From assembly GCA_963749655.1 (NCBI GenBank), contig CAVVOB010000018.1, positions 64,001 through 128,000 of the forward strand: a DNA stretch of 64,000 nt, read 5' to 3'. The notes beneath the pieces were generated by a model. That model was not told where the DNA came from, ran no database searches, and was given only the letters and a program-made list of their open reading frames with translations. Origin of the DNA: Nitrospirota bacterium (GTDB lineage: Bacteria; Nitrospirota; UBA9217). How positions within the stretch are numbered: position 1 is the first letter of the stretch; each line of letters begins with the position of its first letter. Below, piece after piece: positions 35,972 through 49,885 of this stretch. The position numbers and the translations under genes are program-made.

Positions 35972-36391
35972 ATGCTTCCCAATGCTTTAGAAGATGTCGT
36001 TCTCTGGCCCCTGGGCGTCTACTTTGCCGCCGTCGTCGGTCTTGTTATCTTTATGATCACGTTCTCCTATCTTCTCGGAGAGCGCCACCGGGAAAAACAG
36101 ACAGCGGAACCCTATGAATCGGGCATCGTATCCACGGGGACGGCGCGCGTCCGCTTCGACATAAAATTCTATCTCGTCGCCATGTTTTTCGTCATCTTCG
36201 ACCTGGAGGCCGTATTCATTTTTTCCTGGGCCGTTTCCATCCGGGAGACGGGATGGACCGGGTACGGCGAAATGCTCATCTTCATCGCGGTGCTGACTGC
36301 GGCTCTCGTATATATATGGAAGCTCGGAGCGCTCGAATGGGGCTCCTTTGTAAAGCATAGTTCAAGGTTCAAAGTTCCAGGTTCAAAGTAA
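35972..36391 (+). CDS. nuoA: NADH-quinone oxidoreductase subunit A
   Basis: PYESGI, KFYLVAMFFVIFDLEAVF, KLGALEW. Confidence 0.95.
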   Translation: MLPNALEDVVLWPLGVYFAAVVGLVIFMITFSYLLGERHREKQTAEPYESGIVSTGTARVRFDIKFYLVAMFFVIFDLEAVFIFSWAVSIRETGWTGYGEMLIFIAVLTAALVYIWKLGALEWGSFVKHSSRFKVPGSK

Positions 36392-36467
36392 AGGCATCAA
36401 CTCAAAACTAATAACTCAAAACTATAAACTCCGCGCTTTGGGAACTCTGAACTATGAACTATAAACT
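36358..36467. repeat. Nested heptamer repeat element at nuoA/nuoB, overlapping both coding ends
   Basis: TAGTTCA AGGTTCA AAGTTCC AGGTTCA; CAACTCA AAACTAA TAACTCA AAACTAT AAACT; GGAACT CTGAACT ATGAACT ATAAACT. Confidence 0.85.
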
Positions 36468-37068
36468 CACCAAGCCCGGCCTCGATTCCCTCGAGGACGC
36501 TGTCCGGAAAAGCCTTTTACTGACGCGGCTGCAGGACATGCTCGCCTGGGGACGGAAGAACTCCATCTGGCCCTTCAATTTCGGCCTTTCCTGCTGCTAC
36601 GTGGAAATGGCCACGAGCCTCACGAGCAAATACGATATCGCGCGGTTCGGCGCCGAAGTAATGCGCGGCACGCCCCGCGAAGCGGATATGATGATCATCG
36701 CCGGGACCGTCTTCATCAAGATGGCGCCGGTTATCAAGCGGCTCTACGAGCAGATGATGGAGCCCCGGTGGGTCATCTCCATGGGCTCGTGCGCCAATTC
36801 CGGCGGCATGTACGACATCTACAGCGTGGTGCAGGGCGTGGACAAATTCCTGCCGGTGGACGTCTACGTTCCCGGCTGTCCGCCGCGGCCGGACGCGTTC
36901 ATGGAAGGCCTTCTGATGCTGCGCGAAAAGGTCGGCAAGGAACGGCGGCCCTTGAGCTGGGTCGCCGGGCCGCAGAACGTGATACGGCCCGAAATGCCGT
37001 GCATGCGCGATCTGAAACGGGAGGAACGCAGAAAGGCGTCGTTCCTGAGGTCGCCGGATGAAGTGTAA
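36454..37068 (+). CDS. nuoB: NADH-quinone oxidoreductase subunit B
   Basis: [27 protein letters not shown]. Confidence 0.96.
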
Positions 37069-37073
37069 GACTG

Positions 37074-37154
37074 CAGTTTTTAGTTTTTAGTTCTTAGTTC
37101 TTAAGACGATACTGCACTTCCAACTTAAAACTCAAAACTAAAAACTCAAAACTG
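37074..37154. repeat. Inverted heptamer element at nuoB/nuoCD
   Basis: CAGTTTT TAGTTTT TAGTTCT TAGTTCT ... CAACTTA AAACTCA AAACTAA AAACTCA AAACTG. Confidence 0.88.
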
Positions 37155-37171
37155 AAACAACTCTTTCCCTT

Positions 37172-38911
37172 ATGGTTCCTATCACCGACAATCTGAAGAC
37201 GGCCTTCCCCGATGCACTCCTTGCCATCCAGGAAACCCGCGACGCCATTCCCACGTTCTGGGTGAAGCCGGAACGGGCAGCCGATGTTCTCCGCCATCTC
37301 AAGACCGGCATAACGAGCCCCTATCGCACCCTCTACGATCTCACCGCCATCGACGAACGGATGAGAAACAACCGGCCGGACCAGCCGGCGAGCGATTTCA
37401 CGGTCGTGTATCATCTTCTTTCCTATGACCGGAACGACGATGTCCGTATCAAAGTGCCGCTCAAGGGAACGGAGCCGTCGCTTCCCACGATCACGGGGCT
37501 CTGGCAGTCCGCTGACTGGTACGAACGGGAAGTCTGGGACATGTTCGGGATCAGGTTCGACGGCCACCCGCATCTGAAAAGGATCCTGATGCCGCCGACG
37601 TGGAAAGGTCATCCTTTGCGCAAGGACCATCCGGCGCGGGCAACCGAGATGGGCCAATTCCGTCTGCCTGATGAGAAGGAGGAAGCGGAACAGACGGCGC
37701 TCCTGTTCAAACCGGAAGATTGGGGTATGGAGCGGGAGTCCGAAGACACGGACTTCATGTTCCTGAACCTCGGACCGCAGCATCCCGGCACGCACGGTCT
37801 CATCCGCTTCGTATTGCAACTCGACGGAGAAACGATCAAGAATGCCGTACTGGATATCGGCTACCATCACCGGGGCGCGGAAAAGATGGCTGAGCGGCAG
37901 TCCTGGCACACGTACATCCCCTATACCGACCGCGTCGACTATCTCGGCGGGGTAATGAACAACATGGCCTACTGCCTTGCCGTTGAGAAGCTTGCAGGCA
38001 TCGAGGTCCCGGACCGCGCCAAGACCATCCGGGTCATGCTCGCCGAGCTCTTCCGCATCGCAAGCCACCTCGTCTGGTACGGCACCTTTGCACAGGATGT
38101 GGGCTCCCTCTCGCCCGTGTTCTACATGTTCACGGACCGCGAACGGGTCTTCGACATCATCGAGGCCGTGTGCGGCGGCCGCATGCATCCCGAATGGTTC
38201 CGGATCGGGGGCGTGGCCCAGGACCTGCCCAAGGGCTGGGACGACCTGGTCAGGAACTTCCTTAAATACCTGCCGCCGCGGCTCAAGGAATACGATTCCA
38301 TCGTGATGCGGAACAGCATCTTCAAGGCGCGCACCAAGGGCGTCGGCAAATACTCCCTTGACGATGCCATCGATTGGGGCGTGACCGGACCGGGCCTCCG
38401 CGCCTGCGGTTTTGAATGGGACTTCCGCAAGAAGCGCCCCTATTCAGGGTACGAAAACTTCGAATTCGACATCCCGACGGCAACAAACGGCGACTGCTAC
38501 GACCGCGGCGTGGTCCGTATCGAAGAGATCCGCCAGAGCCTGCGCATCGTCGAGCAGTGCATGAAAAACATGCCCGCGGGGCCGTACAAGTCCGATCATC
38601 CGCTCGCGACGCCGCCGCGCAAGGAACGCACCATGCACGATATCGAAACGCTCATCAACCATTTCCTGAGCGTAAGCTGGGGACCGGTCATCCCTGCCGG
38701 CGAAGCCTTCATGGGCATCGAAGCCACGAAGGGAAACAACGGCTATTACCTGATCAGCGACGGGAGCACGGTGTCGTACCGCACGCGGATACGCACGCCT
38801 TCCTTTGCGCACCTGCAGATGGTGCCGAAGATCAGCAGGGGCCTGATGATCGCCGACCTCCTGGCGATCCTGGGGAGCATTGATTTTATTTTGGCGGATC
38901 TGGACAGATAG
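37172..38911 (+). CDS. nuoCD: NADH-quinone oxidoreductase fused subunit C/D
   Basis: [48 protein letters not shown]. Confidence 0.96.
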
Positions 38912-38914
38912 GGG

Positions 38915-38948
38915 CAGTTTTGAGTTCAGAGTTTTTAGTTTTGAGTTG
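38915..38948. repeat. Single heptamer arm at nuoCD/nuoE
   Basis: CAGTTTT GAGTTCA GAGTTTT TAGTTTT GAGTTG. Confidence 0.82.
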
Positions 38949-38979
38949 AAAGCACTGAGTTTACATTGCAGACTATTTC

Positions 38980-39444
38980 ATGCTATCGAAAGAAGAGATA
39001 AACAAGATTAACGCCGAGCTGGTCCATGCCGTCACCAAGGCCTCGGCATCCGTTGACGCGCTCAATATCCTCCAGCGCAGCCGCGGCTGGGTGTCCGACG
39101 ATGCAGTAAAGGACGTTGCCGCGCTCCTGGAGATGACTGCCGACGAAGTGGACGCGGTGGCCACGTTCTACAGCTTCATTTTTAGAAAGCCCGTCGGCAA
39201 ACACGTCATCCTCATCTGCGACAGCATCTCCTGCTGGGTCATGGGATACAATCCCCTGCTGGATCTGATGAAGAACAAACTCGGCATCGCATTCGGCGAG
39301 ACAACGGCAGACAAACGGTTCACCCTTCTCCCCATCTCCTGCCTTGGCGCTTGTGACCGTGCACCGGCAATGATGGTCGACGACGATCTCCACGGTCCGG
39401 TAACTCCAGAGATGATGGAAGGGCTACTGGAAAAGTACAAGTAA
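38980..39444 (+). CDS. nuoE: NADH-quinone oxidoreductase subunit E
   Basis: VATFY, CDSISC, CLGACDRAP. Confidence 0.95.
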   Translation: MLSKEEINKINAELVHAVTKASASVDALNILQRSRGWVSDDAVKDVAALLEMTADEVDAVATFYSFIFRKPVGKHVILICDSISCWVMGYNPLLDLMKNKLGIAFGETTADKRFTLLPISCLGACDRAPAMMVDDDLHGPVTPEMMEGLLEKYK

Positions 39445-39448
39445 TAGC

Positions 39449-39551
39449 TTTGCCACGAATTATCACGAATTAACACGAATAAAACATTAGACTTGAGAAC
39501 AAAATTTTAAAATCTCTTTAAATTCGTGAAAATTCGTGTCAATTCGTGGCT
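39449..39551. repeat. Inverted 10-mer (CACGAATT) repeat element at nuoE/nuoF
   Basis: GCCACGAATT ATCACGAATT AACACGAATA ... AATTCGTGAA AATTCGTGTC AATTCGTGGC. Confidence 0.92.
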
Positions 39552-39562
39552 GAAAAGGTTTT

Positions 39563-40834
39563 ATGGAACGACCTCTCACAAAAAACATACGCGCCGGCCA
39601 GGAGCCCCTTTCGCTTCAGGAATATGAGAAAGCCGGCGGCTACCAGGCCCTGCGCAAGGCCCTCACGATGACGCCCCAGCAGGTGCAGGACGTGGTCAAG
39701 ACTTCAAACCTCCGCGGCCGCGGGGGCGCTGGGTTCCCCACGGGGATGAAGTGGAGCTTTGTGCCCATGGGCGACAAAGCGCCCCGTCCCAAGTACTTCG
39801 TGGTCAATGCCGACGAAATGGAACCCGGCACGTTCAAGGACCGGCTCCTCCTCGAAGGCGATCCCCACCAGATCATCGAAGGAGTCATCATCAGCTCCTT
39901 TGCCATCGAGGCGGAGCAAGCCTTCATCTTTGTGAGGTGGGCTTATAAGCTTGCGGTAAAGCGGCTGGAGAAGGCCATTGCCGAAGCCTATGAGAAAGGC
40001 TATCTGGGAAAGAATATCCTCGGTTCCGGCTTCAGCCTCGAGCTTCGCATCCACGGGAGCGCGGGCCGCTATATTTGCGGCGAGGAAACAGCTCTCCTGA
40101 ACGCTCTTGAAGGAAAGCGCGCAACACCCCGGGCCAAGCCGCCGTTCCCGCAGGTCTGCGGTCTTTTCGGCAAGCCCACGATCGTGAACAATGCCGAGAC
40201 CGTTGCGAACATCCCCCATATCATCGGCAACGGGCCTGACTGGTTCAAGTCCTTGAGCACAAGCCCTGACGCGGGGACCAAGCTCTTCGGCGTCAGCGGC
40301 CGGGTCAAAAAACCCGCCATCTGGGAGCTGCCCATGGGAGTGACGGTGCGCGAGCTTCTGGAAGAGCACGCCGGCGGCATGCAGGACGGCTACTCCTTCC
40401 GCGGCGTGATCCCCGGCGGCGCATCGACCGACTTTCTCGTGCAAGAGCATCTCGATGTAAAAATGGACTTCGACTCGGTCATGAAAGCCGGCAGCCGTCT
40501 CGGTACAGGAACCATGATAGTGCTCGATGATAAGACCTGCCCCGTGGGCTTCGTGCATAATATGGAAGTCTTCTTTGCCCGCGAGTCCTGCGGCTGGTGC
40601 ACGCCCTGCCGCGAGGGCCTCCCGTGGATCGAGAAGATGCTCCGGGCCATCGAGAACGGGCAGGGAGAAATGGACGATATCGACATCCTTGCACAGCAAT
40701 GCAGGCTTCTCGGACCGGGAAACACCTACTGCGCACTGGCCCCCGGCGCGGTCGAGCCGCTCCAGAGCGCGATAAAGTACTTCCGGGAAGACTTTGAGAA
40801 GCATATTCATGGGAAGAAGTGCCCGTGGAAATGA
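39563..40834 (+). CDS. nuoF: NADH-quinone oxidoreductase subunit F
   Basis: LRGRGGAGFPTG, NADEMEPGTFKDR, YICGEETAL, ESCGWCTPCREG. Confidence 0.97.
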   Translation: MERPLTKNIRAGQEPLSLQEYEKAGGYQALRKALTMTPQQVQDVVKTSNLRGRGGAGFPTGMKWSFVPMGDKAPRPKYFVVNADEMEPGTFKDRLLLEGDPHQIIEGVIISSFAIEAEQAFIFVRWAYKLAVKRLEKAIAEAYEKGYLGKNILGSGFSLELRIHGSAGRYICGEETALLNALEGKRATPRAKPPFPQVCGLFGKPTIVNNAETVANIPHIIGNGPDWFKSLSTSPDAGTKLFGVSGRVKKPAIWELPMGVTVRELLEEHAGGMQDGYSFRGVIPGGASTDFLVQEHLDVKMDFDSVMKAGSRLGTGTMIVLDDKTCPVGFVHNMEVFFARESCGWCTPCREGLPWIEKMLRAIENGQGEMDDIDILAQQCRLLGPGNTYCALAPGAVEPLQSAIKYFREDFEKHIHGKKCPWK

Positions 40835-40868
40835 TCGCCACGAATAAGAGGAGTAAAAAAACCTTGCT

Positions 40869-40963
40869 AGCCACGAATTGACACGAATTTTCACGAATTT
40901 AAAAGACTTCCAGAAATCTCTTTCTAATTTTAATTCGTGTTAATTCGTGAAATTCGTGGCAAA
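40869..40963. repeat. Second copy of the 10-mer element at nuoF/nuoG, in inverted orientation
   Basis: GCCACGAATT GACACGAATT TTCACGAATT ... AATTCGTGTT AATTCGTGA AATTCGTGGC. Confidence 0.92.
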
Positions 40964-40971
40964 AAAAGCTT

Positions 40972-43506
40972 ATGATTACGATTTTTATCGACAATAAGCA
41001 GTATCAAGTGAAGGAAGGCCGGAACCTCCTTCAAACCTGCTTGTCCCTGGGGTTCGACCTGCCCTACTTCTGCTGGCACCCTGCCATGCATTCCGTGGGC
41101 GCGTGCCGTCAGTGCGCGGTCAAGGTATTCAAGGACGAGAAGGACACCCGCGGCAGGATCATGATGTCCTGCATGACGCCGGCAACGGAGGGGATGCGTT
41201 TGTCTATCGATGATGCGGACGCAAAGGCCTTCCGCAGAAGCGTGGTCGAATGGCTTATGCTCAACCATCCCCATGACTGCCCGGTCTGCGACGAAGGCGG
41301 CGAGTGCCACCTCCAGGACATGACGGTCATGACCGGCCATACGTACCGCAGGACGCGGTTCAAGAAACGCACCCACCGCAACCAGGACCTGGGGCCTTTC
41401 ATCAATCATGAAATGAACCGCTGCATCCAGTGCTACCGCTGCGTCCGGTTCTACCGGGACTATGCGGGGGGAAAGGACTTTGACGTCTTTGCGGCCCACG
41501 ACAGCGTCTATTTCGGACGACACGAGGACGGCACGCTCGAAAACGAGTTCAGCGGCAACCTCGTCGAGGTCTGCCCCACCGGCGTATTTACGGACAAAAC
41601 GCTGAAACATCATTACACCCGCAAGTGGGACCTTCAGACAGCTCCGTCAATCTGCGTTCACTGCGGTCTCGGCTGCAACACCATCCCCGGTGAGCGCTAT
41701 GGAGCGCTCAGGAGAATATTGAATCGCTACAACCATGAGGTGAACGGATACTTTCTCTGCGACCGCGGCCGGTTCGGCTACGAGTTCGTGAACAGCGGGA
41801 AGAGGATCAGAAAGGCACTCTTCAATTCCCCCTCTCCCCGTGCGGGAGAGGGCCGGGGTGAGGGGGGACCGAAGCCTGCGGACAAGACAGAAGCGCTCAA
41901 ACAGATTGTCGATATACTCTCCACCAGCAACGGCATAATCGGCATCGGATCACCCCGCGCCTCCCTGGAATCGAACTTTGCGCTTCGAACGCTGGTCGGT
42001 CCCGAGAACTTTTACGCAGGGATGTCCACAGAGGATCAAAGGCTGGTCTCGCTCATCATTGACATTCTGAGGAACGGTCCGGCATATACGCCGTCGCTGC
42101 ATGACGTAGAAATGGCCGATGCAGTCCTTGTACTCGGAGAGGACGTGACGAACACGGCGCCCCTTCTCGACCTGGCTCTGCGCCGCTCGGTGCGTAATCA
42201 GCCGGTAGATGCAGTGGAAAAGAAGCGGATACCGCGATGGGACGATAACGCGGTCCGGAACATGATCCAGGACGAAAGAGGCCCGCTCTATATTGCCGCT
42301 GCAGGAGAGACCAGGCTGGACAATGCTGCTGCAAAGACCTATCACGCGGCACCTGACGCTCTGGCAAGACTCGGATTTGCTGTCGCACACGAGTTGAGTC
42401 CTGATGCACCTGCTGTTGAAGATCTTTCCGTTGACACAGCCTTTCTTGCGCGGGAGATTGCCCAGGCGCTTAAAAACGCCCAGCACCCGGTCGTCATCTC
42501 CGGTACCAGCCTCGGCAATGAGTCCTTGATAAAGGCTGCTGCAAATGTGGCCTGGGCTTTATGCCAAAGCGGGAAGCCGGCGGGGCTTTTCTATACCGTG
42601 CCCGAGTGCAACAGCTTGGGGATGGGGCTCATGGGCGGGAAGGGCCTCGATCAAGCGTTCAAGGCTGTCCACGAAGGCAAAGCAGCTACCGTAATTATTC
42701 TGGAGAATGACCTTTATCGCAGGGCCGATGAGAAGTCTGTTAATGATTTTCTGAGCACAGCGCGCTGCGTGATCGCTCTCGACCATCTGATAAATCCGAC
42801 CTCCTCGAAGGCGCAGATCACTCTCCCGGCAGCCACCTTTGCCGAGGCAGACGGCACGCTCGTGAACAACGAGGGAAGGGCCCAACGATTTTATCAAGTG
42901 TTTACGCCCAATCTTGACATCCAGGATAGCTGGAAATGGCTTCGTGATATACTCCCAGCATCGGACCGGAAAGAAGCCGGTGAGTGGTTGTCATTCGACG
43001 ATATCGGGAAAGACCTGGCGGCGTCGCTCGACATTTTCAAGCTCCTGCCGGACCTGGCTCCCCCTGCCGACTTCCGCGTTGCCGGGGCGAAGATCCCCCG
43101 ACAGCCCCATCGCTACAGCGGCAGAACAGCGATGCTCGCGAACATCAGCGTCCACGAACCCAAGCCCGTTGACGACCCGGACACGCCCCTTTCCTTCTCA
43201 ATGGAAGGCTACGAAGGGAAGCCTCCTGCAGCGCTTATCTCGCGCTACTGGTCGCCGCGATGGAACTCGGTCTCGGCGTTGAACAAGTTCCAGCAGGAAG
43301 TGGGCGGTCCGCTTAAAGGGGGAGATCCGGGAAAGAGATTGATAGAACCGATACGCGACGGGAAGCAGGCGTATTTTACCGACGTTCCATCGAAAGCGAT
43401 GCCGGGGCAACAGGAAGCTCCGCAATATGATATTTTCAGATCAGAGGAATTAAGCGCTCAGGCTCCGGCAATAATCGAGCGGGCGAGAACGAGAAAGCGA
43501 CAATAA
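40972..43506 (+). CDS. nuoG: NADH-quinone oxidoreductase subunit G
   Basis: PYFCWHP, GACRQC, NHPHDCPVCDEGGECHLQD, RCIQCYRC, CVHCGLGC, LCDRGRFG. Confidence 0.96.
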   Translation: MITIFIDNKQYQVKEGRNLLQTCLSLGFDLPYFCWHPAMHSVGACRQCAVKVFKDEKDTRGRIMMSCMTPATEGMRLSIDDADAKAFRRSVVEWLMLNHPHDCPVCDEGGECHLQDMTVMTGHTYRRTRFKKRTHRNQDLGPFINHEMNRCIQCYRCVRFYRDYAGGKDFDVFAAHDSVYFGRHEDGTLENEFSGNLVEVCPTGVFTDKTLKHHYTRKWDLQTAPSICVHCGLGCNTIPGERYGALRRILNRYNHEVNGYFLCDRGRFGYEFVNSGKRIRKALFNSPSPRAGEGRGEGGPKPADKTEALKQIVDILSTSNGIIGIGSPRASLESNFALRTLVGPENFYAGMSTEDQRLVSLIIDILRNGPAYTPSLHDVEMADAVLVLGEDVTNTAPLLDLALRRSVRNQPVDAVEKKRIPRWDDNAVRNMIQDERGPLYIAAAGETRLDNAAAKTYHAAPDALARLGFAVAHELSPDAPAVEDLSVDTAFLAREIAQALKNAQHPVVISGTSLGNESLIKAAANVAWALCQSGKPAGLFYTVPECNSLGMGLMGGKGLDQAFKAVHEGKAATVIILENDLYRRADEKSVNDFLSTARCVIALDHLINPTSSKAQITLPAATFAEADGTLVNNEGRAQRFYQVFTPNLDIQDSWKWLRDILPASDRKEAGEWLSFDDIGKDLAASLDIFKLLPDLAPPADFRVAGAKIPRQPHRYSGRTAMLANISVHEPKPVDDPDTPLSFSMEGYEGKPPAALISRYWSPRWNSVSALNKFQQEVGGPLKGGDPGKRLIEPIRDGKQAYFTDVPSKAMPGQQEAPQYDIFRSEELSAQAPAIIERARTRKRQ
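41827..41866. repeat. GC-rich palindromic element in frame inside nuoG
   Basis: TCCCCCTCTCCCCGTGCGGGAGAGGGCCGGGGTGAGGGGG, translated SPSPRAGEGRGEG. Confidence 0.75.
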
Positions 43507-43513
43507 ACGGGGT

Positions 43514-43615
43514 GCGTCATTCCTGCGAAAGCAGGAATCCAGGGTCTTCAGGAAGAGTCGCTGGATTCCCCCTGCCTCAAGCATGCAGGGGCAGGCTTGC
43601 AAGCCCGGAATGACG
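43514..43615. repeat. dRS3/REP-like palindromic element at nuoG/nuoH with a nested ~30-bp insert
   Basis: CGTCATTCCTGCGAAAGCAGGAATCCAG ... CTGGATTCC[CCCTGCCTCAAGCATGCAGGGGCAGGCTTG]CAAGCCCGGAATGACG. Confidence 0.9.
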
Positions 43616-43697
43616 GCATTGGCTACGGCAGTTTGAACAGGTTAACTTTTTCGTATCATGGCGTCAACGTCTTAGCGGCAACAAATATAAATCATTA

Positions 43698-44663
43698 ATG
43701 ATAGACATGCCAGTCATTCAAAAACTTGCCATCCTCTTCGGCATTCTTTTCGTGGTGCTCACGATCGGCGGAATGCTGATCTGGCTCGAGCGTCGCCTGC
43801 TCGGCCTATGGCAGGACCGCTACGGACCGAACCGCGTCGGTCCCTTCGGCCTCCTGCAGGTGCTGGCGGATATGATCAAAGTGTTCACCAAGGAGGACTG
43901 GATCCCGCCTTTCGCAGACAAGGCGGTCTTCATCATCGCGCCTGCCGTGATCGTCGTGGTCGTGCTCATGTCCTTTGCCATCATCCCCTTCGCGCCGGGG
44001 ATCGAAATCGTGGACCTGAACATTGGGCTCCTATTCTTTCTTGCCATGTCTTCCCTGGGAGTATACAGTGTCGCCCTGGCAGGCTGGGCGTCGAGCAGCA
44101 AGTATTCGCTCCTCGGCGGGCTCCGCGCCTCGGCCCAGATGCTTGCATACGAGGTCTTCATGGGCCTGTCGCTCATGGGAGTGGTGATGCTCGCGGGGTC
44201 GTTCAATCTTCGCGAGATCGTCGAGGCCCAGCGCCATCTGTGGTTCGTCGTGCCCCAGTTCATCGGGTTCGTGATTTTCTTCATCGCCGGAATCGCTGAA
44301 ACCCACCGCCTCCCCTTTGACCTGCCCGAGGCGGAGAGCGAGCTCGTGGCCGGCTATCATTCGGAATACTCGGGCATGAAGTTCGGCATGTTCTTCGTGG
44401 GCGAGTATCTCGGGATCACGCTCATCTCGGCGCTCACGACGGCCCTGTTCTTCGGCGGGTGGCTGGGCCCCTGGCTTCCGCCCGTGGTCTGGTTTATGAT
44501 CAAGACGTTTTTTTTCATCTGCTTTTTCATCCTGCTCCGGGCTGCGCTCCCCCGGCCGCGGTATGATCAGCTCATGGCTTTTGGATGGAAAGTGATGCTG
44601 CCCTTGTCGCTGGCAAATCTGCTCGTGACGGGGGCGGTTGTTTTGATAAAAGCAAACCAATAA
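43698..44663 (+). CDS. nuoH: NADH-quinone oxidoreductase subunit H
   Basis: [47 protein letters not shown]. Confidence 0.96.
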
Positions 44664-44693
44664 ACCGGGGTCGGTACACGGGTTTTCACTATG

Positions 44694-44782
44694 GCGTCAT
44701 TCCTGCGAAAGCAGGAATCCAGGGATTTTCAGTTTGAAGAAAAGACTAAGCCGCTGGATTCCGGGTCAAGCCCGGAATGACG
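44694..44782. repeat. Second, direct copy of the dRS3/REP-like element at nuoH/nuoI
   Basis: CGTCATTCCTGCGAAAGCAGGAATCCAG ... CTGGATTCCGGGTCAAGCCCGGAATGACG. Confidence 0.92.
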
Positions 44783-44801
44783 AATAAAGGATAAAAATGT
44801 A

Positions 44802-45317
44802 ATGTTCAGCCTTCTTAAAACAATCTGGACGGTCTTCATGACCATGTTCCGCAAACGGGCGACGATCCTGTACCCCGAAGAGCGGCCCTACATCCCTCCC
44901 CGGTGGCGCGGCAGGATCATACTCTCGCGCGACCCCGATGGAGAGGAACGCTGCGTTGCCTGCTACCTCTGCGCCGTCGCCTGCCCCGTGGACTGTATTT
45001 CGCTCCAGGCGACCGAGGACGCGCACGGAAGGCGATCTCCCGAATTTTTCAGGATCAATTTTTCACGATGTATTTTCTGCGGCTATTGCGAAGAAGCATG
45101 CCCGACCTATGCGATCCAGTTGACGACTGATTTCGAAATGAGTGAATACAAACGGCAGAACCTTGTCTACGAAAAGGAAGACCTGCTCATCAGCGGGCCG
45201 GGCAAATACCATGACTACAATTTCTACCGCGAAGCGGGACTGTCGATCAAAGGCAAGGACAAGGGCGAAGCAAAGAACGAAGAAAAACCGGTGGACGTGA
45301 AGGACTTAATGCCATAA
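44802..45317 (+). CDS. nuoI: NADH-quinone oxidoreductase subunit I
   Basis: [24 protein letters not shown]. Confidence 0.96.
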
Positions 45318-45323
45318 ACAATT

Positions 45324-45390
45324 TTGACAGGATAACAGGATCGGCGGTAAGAAAATTTCACCCGATCTTTATCCCGTTATCCAATCCAAA
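45324..45390. repeat. Inverted ACAGGAT repeat element at nuoI/nuoJ
   Basis: TTGACAGGATAACAGGAT ... TTATCCCGTTATCCAATCCAAA. Confidence 0.8.
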
Positions 45391-45396
45391 CTCTTT

Positions 45397-45891
45397 ATGA
45401 ATTTACTTTTTTATATATCAGCAGTTGTCGCCGCGGTCTCGACCTTCATGGTTATAACCAGAAAGAGCGCTGTCCATGCTCTTCTGTACCTGATCGTGTC
45501 GCTTCTTGCCGTGGCGCTCATATTCTTTGCCCTCGGCGCGCCCTTTGTTGCCGCCCTGGAGGTCATCATTTACGCAGGGGCCATCATGGTGCTTTTCGTA
45601 TTCGTGATCATGATGCTGAACCTCGGCTCGCAGGCTGCGGAGCAGGAATCGCTCTGGCTTTCGCCGGGAATCTGGAGCGGCCCGTCCCTGCTCGCCTCAG
45701 TTCTCGCCGGGGAGCTCCTGTACGCCTTCACAGCAGGACAGGCTAGGACTGTCACGGCCGGGCTGATCGGTCCCAAGCAGGTCGGCATTGCCCTCTTCGG
45801 CCCTTATGTAGTCGGCGTGGAGCTGGCGTCGATGCTGCTTTTGGCAGGTTTGATCGGGGCCTATCACCTCGGCAGGCCGCACAAGCACTGA
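45397..45891 (+). CDS. nuoJ: NADH-quinone oxidoreductase subunit J
   Basis: ALEVIIYAGAIMVLFVFVIMMLN, VELASMLLL. Confidence 0.95.
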   Translation: MNLLFYISAVVAAVSTFMVITRKSAVHALLYLIVSLLAVALIFFALGAPFVAALEVIIYAGAIMVLFVFVIMMLNLGSQAAEQESLWLSPGIWSGPSLLASVLAGELLYAFTAGQARTVTAGLIGPKQVGIALFGPYVVGVELASMLLLAGLIGAYHLGRPHKH

Positions 45892-45904
45892 AAGATATTT
45901 ATTC

Positions 45905-45968
45905 GACAGGATAACAGGAGCGACAGGATTTTAAAGATTCTATCAGATCCTTATCCCGTTATCCTGTC
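45905..45968. repeat. Second, direct copy of the ACAGGAT element at nuoJ/nuoK
   Basis: GACAGGATAACAGGAGCGACAGGATT ... GATCCTTATCCCGTTATCCTGTC. Confidence 0.85.
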
Positions 45969-45983
45969 CAAAAGGAGTTGCCT

Positions 45984-46295
45984 TTGATCTCAAACATCCC
46001 CATGGAACACGGCCTCATCCTCGCCGCCATTCTCTTCGCGCTCGGGCTTGTCGGCGTTCTTGTGCGGCGGAACATCGTCTTCATGCTCATGTCCATCGAG
46101 ATCATGCTGAACGCCGTGGGCCTGGCCTTCGTAGTCGCCGGAGCGCGGTGGGGCCAGGTTGACGGCCAGGTGATGTTCATTTTCATCCTCACGATGGCGG
46201 CTGCCGAGGTTTCCGTGGGGCTGGCTCTCGTTCTGCAGATGTATCACAGCTTCAAAACGCTCGATGCCGACGCAGCGAGCAGGATGAAAGGATAA
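45984..46295 (+). CDS. nuoK: NADH-quinone oxidoreductase subunit K (TTG start after AAGGAG; start uncertain)
   Basis: [28 protein letters not shown]. Confidence 0.94.
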
Positions 46296-46304
46296 CTTGG
46301 CCAT

Positions 46305-46336
46305 CAACTCGAAACTCGAAATTTAGAACTATGAAC
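46305..46336. repeat. Single heptamer arm at nuoK/nuoL running into the nuoL start codon
   Basis: CAACTCG AAACTCG AAATTTA GAACTAT GAAC. Confidence 0.65.
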
Positions 46337-48227
46337 GCCTTTCTTTTTTTAATACCCGCTCTCCCCTTTGCCGGATTTATCATCCTGGCGCTCGCGGGCC
46401 GTCGCTTATCTAAACCCACGACGGCTGTCATCGGCGCAGGCTCCGTGGGGCTGTCCGCTCTTCTCGCGGTCCTGACCGCCATACAATTCGTGGTCTCGCC
46501 TCCGCAGGGCCGGGCTATCACCCAGACGCTCTGGACGTGGATGCAGTTCGACGGCTATGAACCGGCGATTGCCCTCGTGCTCGATCCGCTCTCGCTCATC
46601 ATGGTGCTCGTCGTGACTATCGTGGGCTTCCTGATCCACATCTATTCCGCGGAGCATATGGAACATGAGGAAGGCTACAGCCGTTTCTTTGCCTACATGA
46701 ATCTTTTCGTAGGCGCCATGCTGACGCTGGTGCTTGCCGACAATCTGTTGTTCCTCTATCTCGGGTGGGAAGGCGTCGGCCTCTGCAGCTACCTTCTGAT
46801 CGGTTTCTGGTACAAGGACCCGCTGAACGGACAGGCGGCGCGCAAAGCCTTCATCGTCACGCGCATCGGCGATACGGCCATGGCCCTCGGTCTTTTTCTG
46901 CTGTTTACGAGCTTCAACACGCTCAATATCCAGGAGCTTATGCAGGCTGTATCGAAGCAGTGGCCTGCGGGCTCATCGACTGCAATTCTCGCGGCAGCGC
47001 TCCTGCTCGGCGGCGCCGTGGGCAAGTCCGCCCAGCTTCCGCTTCAGACCTGGTTGCCTGATGCCATGGCGGGCCCCACGCCCGTGAGCGCACTGATCCA
47101 CGCGGCGACCATGGTAACCGCCGGCGTCTACCTCATCGCCCGGACCCACGTGCTCTTTGCCCTCGCCCCTGCAGTGCAGACCGCGGTGGCTGTTATCGGA
47201 GCGCTGACCCTGCTCCTGGCCGGGTTCAGCGCGCTCACGCAGAAGGATATCAAGCGCGTTCTCGCCTATTCGACGATCAGCCAGATCGGCTACATGTTCC
47301 TGGCCCTGGGCGTAGGCGCCTGGTCAGCGGCCCTGTTCCATTTCATGACCCATGCCTTCTTCAAGGCCCTCCTGTTCCTCGCCGCCGGCGTCGTGATCAT
47401 GGCCCAGCACGAGGAGCATGATATGTTCAAGATGGGAGGCCTCCGCACCAGGCTCCCGATCACGTTCTGGACTTTCCTGATCGGCGCCTGCTCGCTCTCG
47501 GCCCTGCCGCTCGTGACCGCGGGCTTTTACAGCAAGGACCTGATCCTCTGGCAGGCATGGTCCTCTCCCACCGGAGGCGCCTGGCTCTGGCTCGCCGGAC
47601 TCATAGGCGCTTTCATCACATCGATCTATACCTTCCGCATGGTATTTCTCACGTTCTTTGGTGAGGCGAAAATGGAGCTTAGCTGGAAACCCGGTGCACG
47701 AACTGTCGTTCCGCTCGCGATTCTCGCGTTCTTCTCGGTGATCGGCGGTTTCGTCGATCTGCCGGAGAATCTGGGAAACCTGCCGCTCCTCTCGGACTTC
47801 CTGCAGCCGGTCTTTCATGAGAGCCTTGCAGGATCGGGTACGAAAGGAAATGAAACCCTTTTTCAGGCAATCTCCGGGCTGGTATCGCTGGCGGGAATTT
47901 TTATCGCTTTTATGATTTACGTACGGAGACCGCATTATGCCGACGAAGTCGTTCGAAACTCTGCGGCATCGGCGCTCCACCGTTTCTGGTTCTCGGGCTG
48001 GGGTTTCGACCGTTTGTATGACGCGCTTTTCGTACGGCCTTTCCTCTGGCTGGCGCAGGTAAACAGGAACGATTTCATCGATTCGGTTTATACGGCGAAT
48101 CGCCGGGATCAACCGGGCGGCCAACAGGGTATTAAGCTTGTCACAGACAGGAAGCATCCGCTGGTATGCAATGGGCATGGGGATCGGAGCAGTGGTAATT
48201 TTGGGAATTATCGTGGCCTTTCGTTAG
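46331..48227 (+). CDS. nuoL: NADH-quinone oxidoreductase subunit L (frameshift ~48100)
   Basis: GWEGVGLCSYLLIGFW, GKSAQLPLQTWLPDAMAGPTPVSALIHAATMV; shifted frame ends QTGSIRWYAMGMGIGAVVILGIIVAFR*. Confidence 0.93.
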
Positions 48228-48259
48228 GAAGTAGCACCTCCATTCGGGGGGAACTCAAG

Positions 48260-48322
48260 CGCACCCTAAAGGGTGCGGCTACCTTAAAAGGACCTTTTTG
48301 TAGCCGCAGGCTTTAGCCTGCG
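48260..48322. repeat. Divergent pair of GTAG-type REP sequences at nuoL/nuoM
   Basis: CGCACCCTAAAGGGTGCGGCTAC (48260-48282) and GTAGCCGCAGGCTTTAGCCTGCG (48300-48322): a GTAG foot plus a hairpin, as in RAYT-associated REPs. Confidence 0.85.
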
Positions 48323-48342
48323 CAAGCAGGAAATAATAAAAT

Positions 48343-49870
48343 ATGATCCTTCTTTGGTTCATCATCATACCGCTCCTCGGCGGACTGGGGGCCTGGGTTT
48401 TCGGCAGGAAGAGCGCTTTGGCAGCGCGCTGGATATCGCTCGCGGCCCTCGCCCTCGACAGCGTGCTGCTGGCCCTGTTCTGGTCCGGTTCCTCGTCTCG
48501 GATCGCGATCAGCTACGGCACCTGGCTCCTGGAGCTCCAGAGGCCCTGGATACCGCAGCTCGGCATCAGCCTCCATCTGGCCGTGGACGGCCTGAGCCTG
48601 CTGCTGGTCGCGCTCACCTTGTTTCTCGGCGTCATCTCCGTGGTCTGCTCCTGGACCGAGATCCGCGAGCGCGTGGGGTTCTTTCATTTCAATCTGATGG
48701 CGATCCTCGGCGGCATTCTGGGAGTGTTCCTGTCCCTGGACCTGTTCCTGTTTTATTTCTTCTGGGAGCTGATGCTCGTGCCCATGTATTTCCTGATCAG
48801 CATCTGGGGCCACGAGAACCGGACCTATGCCTCGCTCAAGTTCTTCATCTTCACCCAGGCAGGCGGCCTCCTCATGCTGCTTTCTATTCTCGGCCTGTAC
48901 TTCATCCACGGCCGGGCACACGGCTTCTACACCTTCGACTATGTCCTGCTTCTCGGAACACAGCTCGCGCCCGGGACTGCCCTCTGGCTCATGCTCGGGT
49001 TCTTCATCGCCTTTCTCGTAAAGCTGCCGGCCATGCCCTTCCACCCCTGGCTCCCGGACGCCCATACCGAAGCTCCCACCGCCGGAAGCGTTATTCTCGC
49101 GGGCCTGCTCTTGAAGACCGGTGCCTACGGTCTCCTGCGCTTCGTCCTGCCGCTCTTTCCCGATGCGGTCATGGCTGTCACTCCACTGGTCATGACCATG
49201 GCCGTCGCAGGCATTATCTACGGCGCTGTGCTCGCCTTTGCCCAGACCGACCTCAAGCGGCTCGTGGCCTACACCAGCGTGAGCCATATGGGCTTCGTGC
49301 TGCTCGGCATTTTCGCCTGGAACCAGACAGCGCAGCAGGGTGCGGTTATGCAGATGCTGGCCCACGGCGTGAGCACCGGCGCCCTGTTCATCGTCGTCGG
49401 CATGATCCAGGAGCGCATTCATACCCGCGATCTGGACCGCATGGGAGGTTTCTGGACCGCTGCCCCGCGCCTGAGCGGAGTCGCCCTCGTCTTCGGACTC
49501 GCATCGCTCGGTTTGCCTGGATTCGGAAATTTCGTGGCCGAGTTCATGGTGCTCCTCGGCACGTTCCGGGTAAACGTCTTTGCCGCTGTCTATCGCGGCC
49601 CTGGGGCTCGTATTCGCTGCTGTCTATTCCCTCTGGATGATCCAGCGCGCTTTTCACGGCGAGCAGAAGGGACCATCCGGCATGGCCGACCTTTCCCTCC
49701 GTGAAGCAGGTATGATGGCGGTGCTGATCATCGCGATCTTCTGGCTCGGTCTTTTCCCCAAGCCGATATTGAACACCTCCGGCCCTGTTTTGAACACGCT
49801 CCAGTGCTGCTCCCCGACATCGCATCAGTCAACGGATGCCGGGGAAAAGACATCGTTGCAGGTCCGATGA
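48343..49870 (+). CDS. nuoM: NADH-quinone oxidoreductase subunit M (frameshift ~49590)
   Basis: FFWELMLVPMY, WLPDAHTEAPTAGS, LKRLVAYTSVSHMG, LGLPGFGNFVAEF. Confidence 0.93.
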
Positions 49871-49885
49871 GAGAGGAGGCGCAAA

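Follow-up and report, generated by a model that had tools for sequence, protein, structure and literature searches.

The stretch of DNA analyzed here (the window; 64,000 nt of contig CAVVOB010000018.1 in assembly GCA_963749655.1, from an uncultured Nitrospirota bacterium) carries a complex I (nuo) operon in the order nuoA to nuoN, whose gene junctions we name by the flanking genes (A/B, B/CD, and so on; Table 1). The source genome is a MAG (86.6% complete, 5.8% contamination) with apparent frameshifts and crude gene calls. Comparison with relatives revealed frame changes in the nuoL-nuoM-nuoN region near 48097, at 49570-49592, and at 50977-50998. Because nuoL is frameshifted near 48097, the GTAG doublet at L/M falls within the called nuoL ORF; read in the congener frame, nuoL has its stop codon at 48224-48226, which leaves the doublet between genes. 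A frameshift in nuoM likewise explains M/N: the 181-nt gap (GC 0.56) is no genuine spacer but part of the nuoM coding sequence read in a different frame. The median same-strand spacer in this genome, as delimited by a crude gene caller, is 103 nt, and the nuo spacers are of ordinary size for the genome.

Table 1. The nuo operon, its genes, and the elements at its junctions (window coordinates).
Feature	Position	Strand	Basis
nuoA-B-CD-E-F-G-H-I-J-K-L-M-N operon	35972..51351	+	ORFs; tblastn of the window's Nuo proteins vs relatives
nuoA	35972-36391	+	ORF
nuoB	36454-37068	+	ORF
nuoCD	37172-38911	+	ORF
nuoE	38980-39444	+	ORF
nuoF	39563-40834	+	ORF
nuoG	40972-43506	+	ORF
nuoH	43698-44663	+	ORF
nuoI	44802-45317	+	ORF
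nuoJ	45397-45891	+	ORF
nuoK	45978-46295	+	ORF
nuoL	start 46331	+	ORF, apparent frameshift near 48097
nuoM	start 48343	+	apparent frameshift
nuoN	start 49886	+	apparent frameshift
A/B element	36357..36462	+	22-nt arms, 86% complementary; fold z -4.46
B/CD hairpin, heptamer family	37074..37154	+	26-nt arms, 88% complementary; z -4.09
CD/E solo AGTTTTN heptamer array, antisense arm type only	38915..38948	+	sequence; z -1.40
E/F hairpin, CACGAATT 10-mer family	39452..39550	+	1 of 40 family members; z -6.79
F/G hairpin, CACGAATT 10-mer family	40870..40960	+	z -6.36
G/H element, GTCATTCC...GGAATGAC family	43515..43615	+	sequence, fold, family comparison
H/I element, GTCATTCC family	44695..44782	+	family comparison; z -3.11
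I/J hairpin, ACAGGATA 8-mer family	45325..45385	+	sequence; z -3.16
J/K hairpin, ACAGGATA 8-mer family	45903..45970	+	inverted-repeat search; z -4.42
K/L direct AACTCGA/AACT heptamers, unstructured	46305..46330	+	z +0.31
L/M GTAG-headed REP doublet, inverted orientation, REPIN-like	48259..48323	+	sequence; z -3.48

The spacer sequences contain repeats at 11 of the 12 junctions, in the order first described. Four families share one plan, in which arms of ~20-35 nt, made of 2-5 tandem 7-, 8-, or 10-nt units (in the GTCATTCC family, a small palindrome in place of tandem units), enclose a loop that differs from copy to copy; the fifth consists of a classical doublet of GTAG REPs. In the 62-nt A/B spacer, a direct array of AACTnnn heptamers (about 36399-36431) lies between two arms, the left of which (ATAGTTCAAGGTTCAAAGTTCC) is within the 3' end of nuoA while the right (GGAACTCTGAACTATGAACTAT) spans the nuoB start codon. 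The B/CD spacer (103 nt) holds AGTTTTT/AGTTCTT units (AGTTTTT x4), a loop, and five AAAACTN units, the CD/E spacer (68 nt) holds the AGTTTTN arm alone, and the K/L spacer (35 nt) holds direct AACTCGA units that adjoin the nuoL start codon. At E/F (118 nt) and F/G (137 nt), three units of GCCACGAATT plus two bases (nn) are followed by a loop and three inverted units, with the termini GCCAC...GTGGC at E/F and a partial extra terminus beside the F/G hairpin at 40837-40846. The G/H (191 nt) and H/I (138 nt) spacers share the pattern CGTCATTCC-TGCGAAAGCA-GGAATCCAG ... CTGGATTCC ... GGAATGACG, the G/H element forming a palindrome of several branches that includes an additional internal hairpin, and inverted arms built of ACAGGATA units fill I/J (79 nt) and J/K (86 nt). 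The L/M doublet has arms at 48259-48282 and 48300-48323 (83% complementary), each with a GTAG head beside an imperfect palindrome (GCACCCTAAAGGGTGCGGCTAC ... GTAGCCGCAGGCTTTAGCCTGC); no GTAG/CTAC head beside a palindrome was present in the spacer sequences of the nuo heptamer, CACGAATT, ACAGGATA, or GTCATTCC elements. The initial annotation had called the spacers AT-rich and their elements palindromic. The former does not hold for G/H (GC 0.52) and H/I (GC 0.48), and the latter fails for K/L and part of A/B, which are direct arrays, and for CD/E, which folds no better than shuffled sequences.

These families are genome-wide and not specific to nuo. Tandem 7-10-mer arrays occur in 623 of 3786 spacers of the genome, which also has 130 short-loop hairpins with periodic arms (109 of them mostly non-coding), and the nuo families recur in hundreds of unrelated spacers, convergent and divergent ones included. 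More than 100 distinct repeat units with periods of 7-10 (145 seed families) coexist, and total arm length stays at ~20-35 nt across units of 7, 8, 9, and 10 with no helical phase kept. Among the 40 elements of the CACGAATT family, the arms and unit period are conserved, the loop and the two bases that separate 10-mers vary freely, and loops are unrelated except between neighbors and in one duplicated region. That loops are unconserved within a family leaves room for arms kept by selection or gene conversion. By our own reading of candidate rows, the ACAGGATA family has about 17 elements (44 rows) and the GTCATTCC family about 25 (31 rows); further doublets of the L/M REP lie at C14:118733/118773, C23:12579/12614, and C38:81054/81089. 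The direct heptamer arrays end close to the nuoB and nuoL start codons, which have no Shine-Dalgarno site. Across the genome as a whole, AACT arrays are not biased to the sense strand (39 sense vs 56 antisense), only 2 of the 39 sense ones have their end between -20 and +10 relative to a start, and AACTnnnAACT-ATG opens a long ORF at nuoB only (1 of 5 occurrences).

The same arms elsewhere enclose small genes. The initial annotation had linked arms of this kind to four-helix-bundle, GxxExxY, GIY-YIG, and DUF559 genes, and the link held for all four families. Heptamer arms enclose four of the six genes of the four-helix-bundle family (23S_rRNA_IVP, PF05635) in the genome (arms of 28-38 nt), one of them with AGTTTTN arms (C18:229779-230208). 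CACGAATT arms surround a GxxExxY gene (C17:24004-24381), whose product is predicted to be PD-(D/E)XK nuclease-like; two more GxxExxY genes are enclosed by CGCAGATTA and CACAGATGAA arms, and one in relative G012 by ACAGGATA arms. A GIY-YIG gene (C30:128910-129302) lies within perfect 29-nt GTCATTCC arms. The L/M GTAG REP flanks, as 27-nt GTAGCCGCAGGC arms with 1 mismatch, a RAYT-like gene (G000:C14:41262-41858) that looks frameshifted, has a weak PF01797 match (22.3 bits, where the cut-off is 23), and shows HUH-like and catalytic-Y-like motifs by eye. Inverted repeats of at least 17 nt tightly flank 8 of 15 matches to the four gene families vs 11 of 1031 control small genes. Among relatives, inverted repeats flank GxxExxY genes at 22 of 30 loci and four-helix-bundle genes at 19 of 30. 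Where the arms passed the periodicity cut, their period tracked the gene family, being 7 at 11 of 13 four-helix-bundle loci vs 0 of 15 GxxExxY loci.

Gene-bearing forms also occur within nuo spacers themselves: congener G003 has a GxxExxY gene in F/G, a DUF559 gene lies in L/M of G008 and in CD/E of G014, and by our own reading of the spacer sequence GxxExxY-like ORFs are present in F/G and J/K of L001 and in I/J of L002. Occupancy differs between congeners. The J/K spacer measures 0-23 nt in 6 of 7 congeners; that of G/H measures 0-6 nt in all 7, which marks the G/H insertion as specific to this lineage. Common to the genus is the heptamer run at A/B, B/CD, and CD/E; heptamer arrays are kept at these junctions and at K/L across the genus, with Nuo proteins only 67-94% identical, and a comparable solo arm lies at CD/E in G003. 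Heptamers of this type adjoin the nuoB start in most congeners, GAACTCTGAACT adjoins the nuoL start codon in G014 and G003, and related heptamers occur in the K/L spacers of other congeners. The GTCATTCC family is clear at H/I in G014 and G008 and partially matched there in G002, the ACAGGATA family is at J/K also in G003, and the REP at L/M is shared with congeners. Units look homogenized within each genome (GTACTCT in G003, GAACTCT in G014 and G011, AAAACTN here), and the persistence of heptamers across the genus fits function or homogenization better than neutral junk. No clean pair of filled and empty sites was seen among relatives, the nearest of which has a NuoG 78-80% identical, nor was a target-site duplication obvious by eye in the element flanks inspected; for this reason, mobility of the elements is something that we infer.

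Homogenized units are also what would be expected if the arms were arrays of DNA sites that co-evolved with one trans factor. Under such an explanation, a host nucleoid-associated or regulatory protein would bind the arrays cooperatively and the inverted layout would arise from a symmetric complex, consistent with a fixed unit period alongside a variable loop and variable bases between 10-mers. However, what stays constant is total arm length and not helical phase, simple site arrays have no need of arm complementarity, more than 100 distinct units occur within one genome, and the only proteins tied to the arms are those that the arms enclose. We consider this explanation quite improbable.

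We then asked how far the arrangement of like elements in neighboring gaps departs from chance. When the 10 labels were shuffled within the operon, at least five of the nine neighbor pairs were of the same family with P = 0.012. Random genome-wide placement of the labels of 651 labelled spacers gave at most three pairs per 12 junctions in 3000 trials (observed: five), so that the permutation test of same-family adjacency places the nuo run above chance. Across the genome, 20 same-family adjacent spacer pairs were observed vs 7.1 ± 2.6 at random (0 of 3000 trials reached 20), and the nuo run far exceeds every other region; the weak local bias seen in general accounts for only part of this. A same-family neighbor lies within 6 kb of 22 of the 40 CACGAATT elements (about 4 expected by our own arithmetic), and for 11 of these 22 it ranks first or second in similarity. 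The E/F and F/G hairpins are reciprocal best matches in the genome (0.64) and align best in inverted orientation (63.5 inverted, 43 direct), whereas G/H and H/I are not mutual best matches and I/J and J/K are likewise not closest copies. The best match of the J/K element lies on another contig (G000:C24:76372; score 0.85, loop included), an observation that counts for distant copying. In 160 related nuo operons, repeat sharing was no commoner between neighboring spacers (39 of 203 at lag 1) than between more distant spacers (26 of 156 at lag 2), with no fall-off up to lag 5.

Across nuoF, facing arms are complementary over 35 of 35 nt (39517-39551 vs 40869-40903), and 18-nt and 20-nt arms, with 2 mismatches each, face each other across nuoB and nuoJ, as might be expected of the proposal that matched elements are recombination brackets for excising, inverting, or swapping single nuo genes. 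That proposal found no support: every locus examined keeps the nuo genes in A to N order and orientation, and the bracketed B, CD, F, H, and J rank congeners by identity in the same way as unbracketed genes, none standing out. The 35-nt match is moreover the family consensus arm, also carried by several unrelated copies. We regard such brackets as hardly credible.

Predicted folding was strong (z -3.1 to -6.8) in 8 of the 11 nuo stretches folded, and the A/B fold is predicted to sequester the nuoB start codon. No terminator-like site was found within the nuo spacers, so they should be read through with the operon and the hairpins transcribed. A search of Rfam 15 gave no match to the nuo elements at the gathering score; its five sub-threshold matches were to plant miRNA-precursor models (24-32 bits vs cut-offs of 72-180). 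These folds, together with the heptamer arrays at the same junctions throughout the genus, could mean that the hairpins are selected RNA elements, either RNase III/RNase E processing sites or 3' stabilizers that tune subunit output, in which case matching families in adjacent gaps would mark units processed alike. Precedent comes from Correia elements, described in the available text of PMC2649163 as co-transcribed hairpins cut or protected by RNase III. We nevertheless judge this unlikely: congeners lack hairpins at the same junctions (z is -2 or higher in every spacer of G011, G002, and G004), the J/K and G/H gaps are all but closed in most or all of the seven congeners, the families also populate hundreds of unrelated spacers, and the adjacency excess is absent from the 160 related operons.

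Taken together, these observations lead us to favor, as probable although well short of certain, the reading that the nuo spacers hold gene-less copies from families of hairpin mini-cassettes, accumulated by inheritance and regionally biased copying. Among the three options raised at the outset, non-autonomous mini-elements with local spread is thus the best supported, as the families are genome-wide, their presence differs between congeners, and 22 of 40 CACGAATT elements are clustered; strict hopping to the next gap is less well supported, since the genus-wide heptamer run, the closest copy of J/K on another contig, the lack of a mutual best match between G/H and H/I, and the lack of adjacency excess in relatives count against it. 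The nuo gaps hold copies from at least five inverted-repeat families, and since arms of the same kind surround a single small gene at other loci, these copies would be non-autonomous, or empty, mini-cassettes. The gene in the loop is 23S_rRNA_IVP for heptamer arms, GxxExxY for CAC-type 8-10-mer arms, GIY-YIG for GTCATTCC arms, and RAYT-like or DUF559 for GTAG REPs. Elements would sit in stop-start gaps because insertion there keeps reading frames intact, and they would be co-transcribed with the operon as RNA that should form stable stem-loops. The run of like neighbors would have two sources: inheritance (heptamers at A/B, B/CD, CD/E, and K/L, GTCATTCC at H/I, ACAGGATA at J/K, and the REP at L/M) and copying biased to nearby sites, from E/F to F/G or the reverse, with the new G/H insertion beside the older H/I element possibly also a nearby copy. 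The layout would follow no built-in pairing rule and no purpose-built code; the operon looks colonized by miniature selfish cassettes.

Among known systems, REP/REPIN elements, reportedly paired with a RAYT transposase (Bertels and Rainey, 2011), are likewise short, multi-copy intergenic palindromes, often in inverted doublets, whose repeats also flank one or a few protein genes; the L/M doublet bears the GTAG head, and its REP also lies on either side of the RAYT-like gene described above. The remaining four families in nuo differ in lacking the GTAG head, in having arms of tandem 7-10-nt units, and in enclosing GxxExxY, four-helix-bundle, and GIY-YIG genes, not Y1 (HUH) transposases. MITEs, too, are short, non-coding, multi-copy elements that end in inverted repeats and vary in their presence from one related genome to another, but internal sequence is not conserved in the 40 CACGAATT elements, no target-site duplication was recognized by eye, and the gene-bearing relatives encode small nuclease-like proteins with no recognizable transposase. 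Neisseria dRS3/NIME carries a 20-nt palindrome, ATTCCC-N8-GGGAAT; compared with this motif, the palindrome here (ATTCC-TGCGAAAGCA-GGAAT) differs in spacing and arms, and we rejected the identity.

Cyanobacterial STRRs are short tandemly repeated heptamers. The available text of PMC4679880 describes TAACTGA tandem heptamers in Beggiatoaceae that stop a few bases ahead of start codons without a Shine-Dalgarno site, and that of PMC4692102 describes 70-75 convergent pairs of Xanthomonas GGGAATC repeats able to form stem-loops; in these portions of both papers, we found no link between repeats and enclosed genes. All three systems resemble the present one in placing tandem heptamers in intergenic regions, including within operons, and the GAACTCTGAACT arrays ahead of nuoB and nuoL end near the start as TAACTGA arrays do. 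Here, in contrast, more than 100 units with periods of 7-10 coexist, most strong cases are hairpins, and AACT arrays genome-wide neither show a sense bias nor adjoin start codons.

Intervening sequences of 23S rRNA, which lie inside the rRNA gene and are excised by RNase III, carry a four-helix-bundle ORF, and four of the six PF05635 genes here likewise lie in the loop of a long stem, although between protein genes and not in rRNA; this 86.6%-complete assembly yielded no LSU rRNA gene. Correia elements are built around a conserved core, with terminal repeats of fixed length (26 nt). They are, like the nuo elements, small intergenic inverted-repeat elements co-transcribed with their neighbors (here presumably so), and differ from them in that loops are variable and arms periodic here. 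As RNase III is described in the available text of PMC2649163 as binding the Correia RNA hairpin of Neisseria and either cutting or protecting it, binding, cutting, or protection of the hairpins by this enzyme is, by analogy, a likely RNA-level consequence in this operon.

Repeats occupy 11 of the 12 junctions of the nuo operon, and the spacer sequences confirm the list of repeats drawn up in the initial annotation. The twelfth junction (M/N; junctions are named here by the nuo genes that they separate) has no true gap: it is repeat-free as listed, but its supposed spacer of 181 nt is coding sequence, and the two genes overlap by 4 nt in 6/7 congeners (the exception, G014, has a 30-nt spacer). 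Measured against the proteins of a congener, nuoL, nuoM and nuoN each shift frame (near 48097, 49570-49592 and 50977-50998, respectively), which reflects either an assembly error or three consecutive broken genes. The nuoL product runs in one frame for residues 1-588 and in the next for residues 589-627 (window 48090-48230), and since nuoL in the congener frame stops at 48224-48226, the REP doublet at L/M is intergenic.

Repeats at the nuo junctions, facing arms around nuo cistrons, and the GxxExxY genes of the genome (C numbers are contigs of the assembly)
Feature	Location	Repeat or arms	Basis or detail
nuoA-B-CD-E-F-G-H-I-J-K-L-M-N operon	in window, + strand		13 genes
A/B, B/CD, CD/E, K/L		AACT-type heptamers	spacer sequence
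E/F and F/G		10-mer GCCACGAATTnn, two inverted arms of three units each	spacer sequence
G/H and H/I		composite palindrome CGTCATTCC-TGCGAAAGCA-GGAATCCAG ... CTGGATTCC ... GGAATGACG	spacer sequence
I/J and J/K		8-mers ACAGGATA in inverted arms	spacer sequence
L/M	upstream of nuoM	GTAG-headed REPs as doublet	
Facing arms across nuoB	36399-36416 with 37075-37092		18 nt complementary, 2 mismatches
Facing arms across nuoF	39517-39551 with 40869-40903		35/35 nt complementary; this 35-mer is identical to the consensus arm of the family
Facing arms across nuoJ	45322-45341 with 45953-45972		20 nt complementary, 2 mismatches
GxxExxY gene	C17	CACGAATT	
GxxExxY gene	C12	CGCAGATTA	
GxxExxY gene	C30	CACAGATGAA	

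The assembly around the window is a MAG of 4.27 Mb in 39 contigs (56% GC; 86.6% complete, 5.8% contamination), in which genes were called with a crude caller of our own (3825 genes, 77.6% coding); family labels and periodicity cut-offs are likewise our own and crude. By this gene set the median same-strand spacer is 103 nt genome-wide, and the long nuo spacers are thus ordinary here. TRF arrays of period 7-10 lie in 623/3786 spacers, and there are 130 short-loop hairpins with internally periodic arms, 109 of them mostly non-coding, with arm periods of 7 (68 hairpins), 8 (10), 9 (12) and 10 (40). Repeat units were grouped by greedy seeds; single-linkage clustering had merged all heptamers into one chain. 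Six or more labelled spacers were found in 110 of 3382 twelve-junction windows (19 separate regions), so that the repeat density of nuo is high, not unique.

What is exceptional is the order of the repeat families in nuo. With labels for the GTCATTCC palindrome and ACAGGATA families added (651 labelled spacers), 20 same-family adjacent spacer pairs were observed genome-wide, against 7.1 ± 2.6 by random placement, and 0/3000 trials reached 20. Five of these 20 pairs lie in nuo, a number that no twelve-junction window reached in 3000 random trials (maximum 3). Shuffling the ten nuo labels within the operon gave P = 0.012, and 9-mer sharing between spacers, which needs no family labels, showed the effect only in diluted form (9.8% at lag 1 vs 5.8% in random pairs). 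Over 160 nuo loci, with spacer pairs counted as sharing when they had three or more 8-mers in common, there was no excess sharing between neighbouring spacers (lags 1, 2 and 3: 39/203, 26/156 and 21/116; lags 4, 5 and beyond: 25/113, 20/90 and 26/199).

The order of the nuo genes is constant in seven congeners (67-94% identity of the Nuo proteins), which differ in the gaps: elements vary there in presence and absence, and some gaps are filled by genes. Their A/B, B/CD, CD/E and K/L junctions carry heptamers of GAACTCT or GTACTCT type that lie against the start codons of nuoB and nuoL; H/I has the GTCATTCC element in G014 and G008 and a partial match to it in G002, a GTAG REP at L/M is shared with congeners, and G003 has a ACAGGATA element at J/K and a remnant at I/J. 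Judged from these comparisons, the heptamer run, the H/I element and the L/M REP predate this genome, and both ACAGGATA elements probably do too. The G/H element is new here, since that spacer measures 0-6 nt in 7/7 congeners; the J/K spacer measures 0-23 nt in 6/7. Conservation of orthologous structure in the nuo spacers was looked for across the seven congeners and not found, and the nuo operons of G011, G002 and G004 held no spacer with a fold z below -2. The closest named NuoG matches are from Nitrospirota MAGs. NuoG identity reached at most 75% among genome contigs and 71% among metagenome contigs; within the genus the best full-length match had 78% and a partial one 80%. Contigs recovered from two DNA runs at 80% likeness carried mostly conserved nuo genes from other organisms, and some low-depth ones, few in number, bridge E/F and J/K with 27-30 other letters replacing the spacer, and we did not use them as evidence because at that likeness their source is probably other organisms.

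Local hopping of mini-elements, as initially proposed, is partly supported by regional clustering of copies: a family member stands within 6 kb of 22 of the 40 CACGAATT elements (~4 expected from 1-exp(-39 x 12 kb / 4.27 Mb)), 11 of these 22 have that neighbour as their most or second most similar copy, and E/F and F/G are reciprocal best matches (0.64) among the 40 copies (alignment inverted 63.5 vs direct 43). Evidence against purely local copying comes from the J/K element, which is nearly identical (0.85) to a copy on contig C24, and from the G/H and H/I elements, each nearer to a copy on C13 than to one another. The alternative of matched brackets that allow exchange of single genes finds no support in the gene order and identity profiles of relatives. 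We conclude that the nuo layout appears to combine inheritance with regionally biased copying, which would explain the size of the run only partly. Beyond the window, CACGAATT elements at C13:23840-26560 and C22:179326-182040 form two pairs that match, including their loops, at 0.93 and 0.90 and have equal 2.6-kb spacing; the cause is a segmental duplication or the presence of two strains in the bin.

The same arm families enclose small genes elsewhere. Genes of the GxxExxY, PF05635, GIY-YIG and RAYT-like types were found between arms of nuo families in this genome, bearing out the initial suggestion that four-helix-bundle, GxxExxY and GIY-YIG genes often sit in such arms. All three GxxExxY genes of the genome (PF13366/TIGR04256) lie between periodic arms, and their proteins retain both the GxxExxY and the D...E-x-K motif and show clear divergence among themselves. 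PF05635 genes (23S_rRNA_IVP, four-helix bundle) lie between heptamer arms in 4/6 cases, in four distinct families of which one is AGTTTTN, and the families flanking these two gene types include the genome's four most array-rich ones. A GIY-YIG gene of 96 residues stands between perfect 29-nt GTCATTCC arms, a second has other 28-nt arms, and an apparently frameshifted RAYT-like gene (C14:41262-41858) is flanked by two GTAGCCGCAGGC copies of the GTAG REP of L/M; elsewhere in the genome, PF01797 has seven matches above cut-off. Tight inverted-repeat flanks (at least 17 nt) were found for 8/15 matches to these gene families, as identified by Pfam and NCBIfam, vs 11/1031 control small genes. Across 40 related genomes, inverted repeats flank 22/30 sampled GxxExxY and 19/30 sampled four-helix-bundle loci, and among loci passing the periodicity cut, arms have period 7 in 11/13 four-helix-bundle vs 0/15 GxxExxY loci, the latter having period 8-10 (Fisher's exact P = 3.6e-6, which overstates the evidence because relatives are not independent). 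One congener (G012) has a GxxExxY gene within ACAGGATA arms. Such genes also occur in nuo gaps themselves: a GxxExxY gene fills F/G in G003 (Pfam-confirmed) and, by reading of the spacer, in locus L001, and a partial PF13366 match lies just past nuoG in G008. DUF559 genes, likewise named at the outset, lie in L/M of G008 and CD/E of G014 (both Pfam-confirmed) and, by reading, in L/M of G003. Among more distant loci from several phyla, a minority have periodic hairpins in nuo gaps. In metagenome contig L088, whose NuoG is 65% identical, ACAGGATA and CACAGATGAA arms occur in B/CD, E/F and F/G, and these families are therefore old or moving between lineages.

In the CACGAATT family (40 elements), the shared termini read GCCAC...GTGGC, each arm has three 8-nt cores with two free bases between them, and the loops are unrelated save between neighbours and in one duplicated region. 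The ACAGGATA family has ~17 members (read from 44 candidate rows) with termini TTGACAGGATAACAGGAT...ATCCTGTTATCCTGTCGA, and the GTCATTCC family ~25 (read from 31 candidate rows), typically of 74-78 nt, in whose predicted RNA fold a closing stem surrounds two or three hairpins. Predicted RNA folds of 8/11 nuo stretches surpass all or nearly all shuffles (z -3.1 to -6.8), and the other three do not (CD/E, z -1.4; G/H, z -2.0; K/L, z +0.3); at A/B, the last nuoA codons and the start region of nuoB are predicted to pair. In the nuo spacers no family of the curated Rfam collection reached threshold, and a role of the hairpins as terminators was rejected, no terminator-like site being predicted there. 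Long-range pairing that encloses a whole cistron (nuoB, nuoF, nuoJ) is possible on paper. Apparent insertions into loops were also seen: at C15:108117-109614, outside the window, left and right CACGAATT arms stand 1.45 kb apart around a segment whose own inverted ends measure 27 nt (AAATGATTTCAGTAGTGTCCCAACGTT), which would fit an IS-like element inserted in the hairpin loop, and the 551-nt B/CD spacer of congener G002 (L196) contains a similar end. At both I/J and J/K of locus L006, a GCAAAAT heptamer hairpin is nested in the loop of a CACGGAGA 8-mer hairpin.

The heptamers GAACTCTGAACT, or a close variant, abut the ATG of nuoB (36441-36456) and nuoL (46318-46333) without a Shine-Dalgarno site. 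At the corresponding junctions of congeners (loci L191, L192, L195-L197), most have related heptamers next to the start of nuoB, and G014 and G003 have GAACTCTGAACT next to that of nuoL. A heptamer directly abutting an ATG is rare genome-wide, and the arrangement may therefore be a conserved nuo-specific feature; genome-wide counts reject AACT heptamers as general translation elements. Each genome has its own preferred unit, constant over its A/B, B/CD, CD/E and K/L junctions (GTACTCT in G003, GAACTCT in G014 and G011, AAAACTN here), which looks like concerted evolution of the unit.

We propose that the nuo elements are the gene-less form of hairpin mini-cassettes, which would be tolerated in stop-start gaps, transcribed through with the operon and folded as RNA stem-loops. 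Element RNA may be cut or protected by RNase III, as intervening sequences of rRNA are; the 23S rRNA gene, sought for comparison with these, was not found in the 86.6%-complete assembly. Correia element RNA is likewise reported to be cut or protected by RNase III (PMC2649163). Going further, GxxExxY (PD-(D/E)XK), four-helix-bundle (23S_rRNA_IVP, Avd-like) and small GIY-YIG proteins could each be the cognate partner of its own hairpin-repeat class, such that a diverged master gene, in one copy per arm family, acts on dozens of gene-less copies by mobilising, homing or processing, with the nuo operon as a dense target field. This idea, to which we give rather less than even odds, draws support from the family-to-family correspondence and the single diverged gene per abundant arm family: three GxxExxY genes lie in three arm families and four four-helix-bundle genes in four heptamer families, and arm period follows gene family across ~40 genomes.

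Heptamer arrays have precedents: MacGregor 2015 (PMC4679880) describes TAACTGA arrays just upstream of start codons, and Rehm et al. 2015 (PMC4692102) report GGGAATC arrays from Xanthomonas, with 70-75 arranged as convergent pairs. The literature searched, with most subscription journals outside it, contained no description of the cassette-gene link or of the ordered layout, of which a prior description is possible, and no title or abstract on GxxExxY concerned repeats. To our knowledge, GxxExxY, 23S_rRNA_IVP four-helix bundles, small GIY-YIG and DUF559 are very common small families with no established role, and accounts of tandem heptamers from intergenic DNA of bacteria offer no mechanism. 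The nuo locus joins the two, its repeats being arms of miniature cassettes able to carry these small genes, family matched to family. If the proteins act on the arms, there would be several new REPIN-RAYT-like systems, a large part of the non-coding fifth of these genomes would be explained, and an essential respiratory operon would be shown to tolerate ~10 structured insertions between cistrons, a point that bears on the way translation and mRNA decay cope once translational coupling is lost. Bertels and Rainey 2011 (PMC3116915) reportedly deals with REP/REPIN and RAYT. RAYTs act on REPINs, and the likeness to that system is of a protein gene flanked by its own repeats and acting on gene-less copies, as we propose for the hairpin cassettes.
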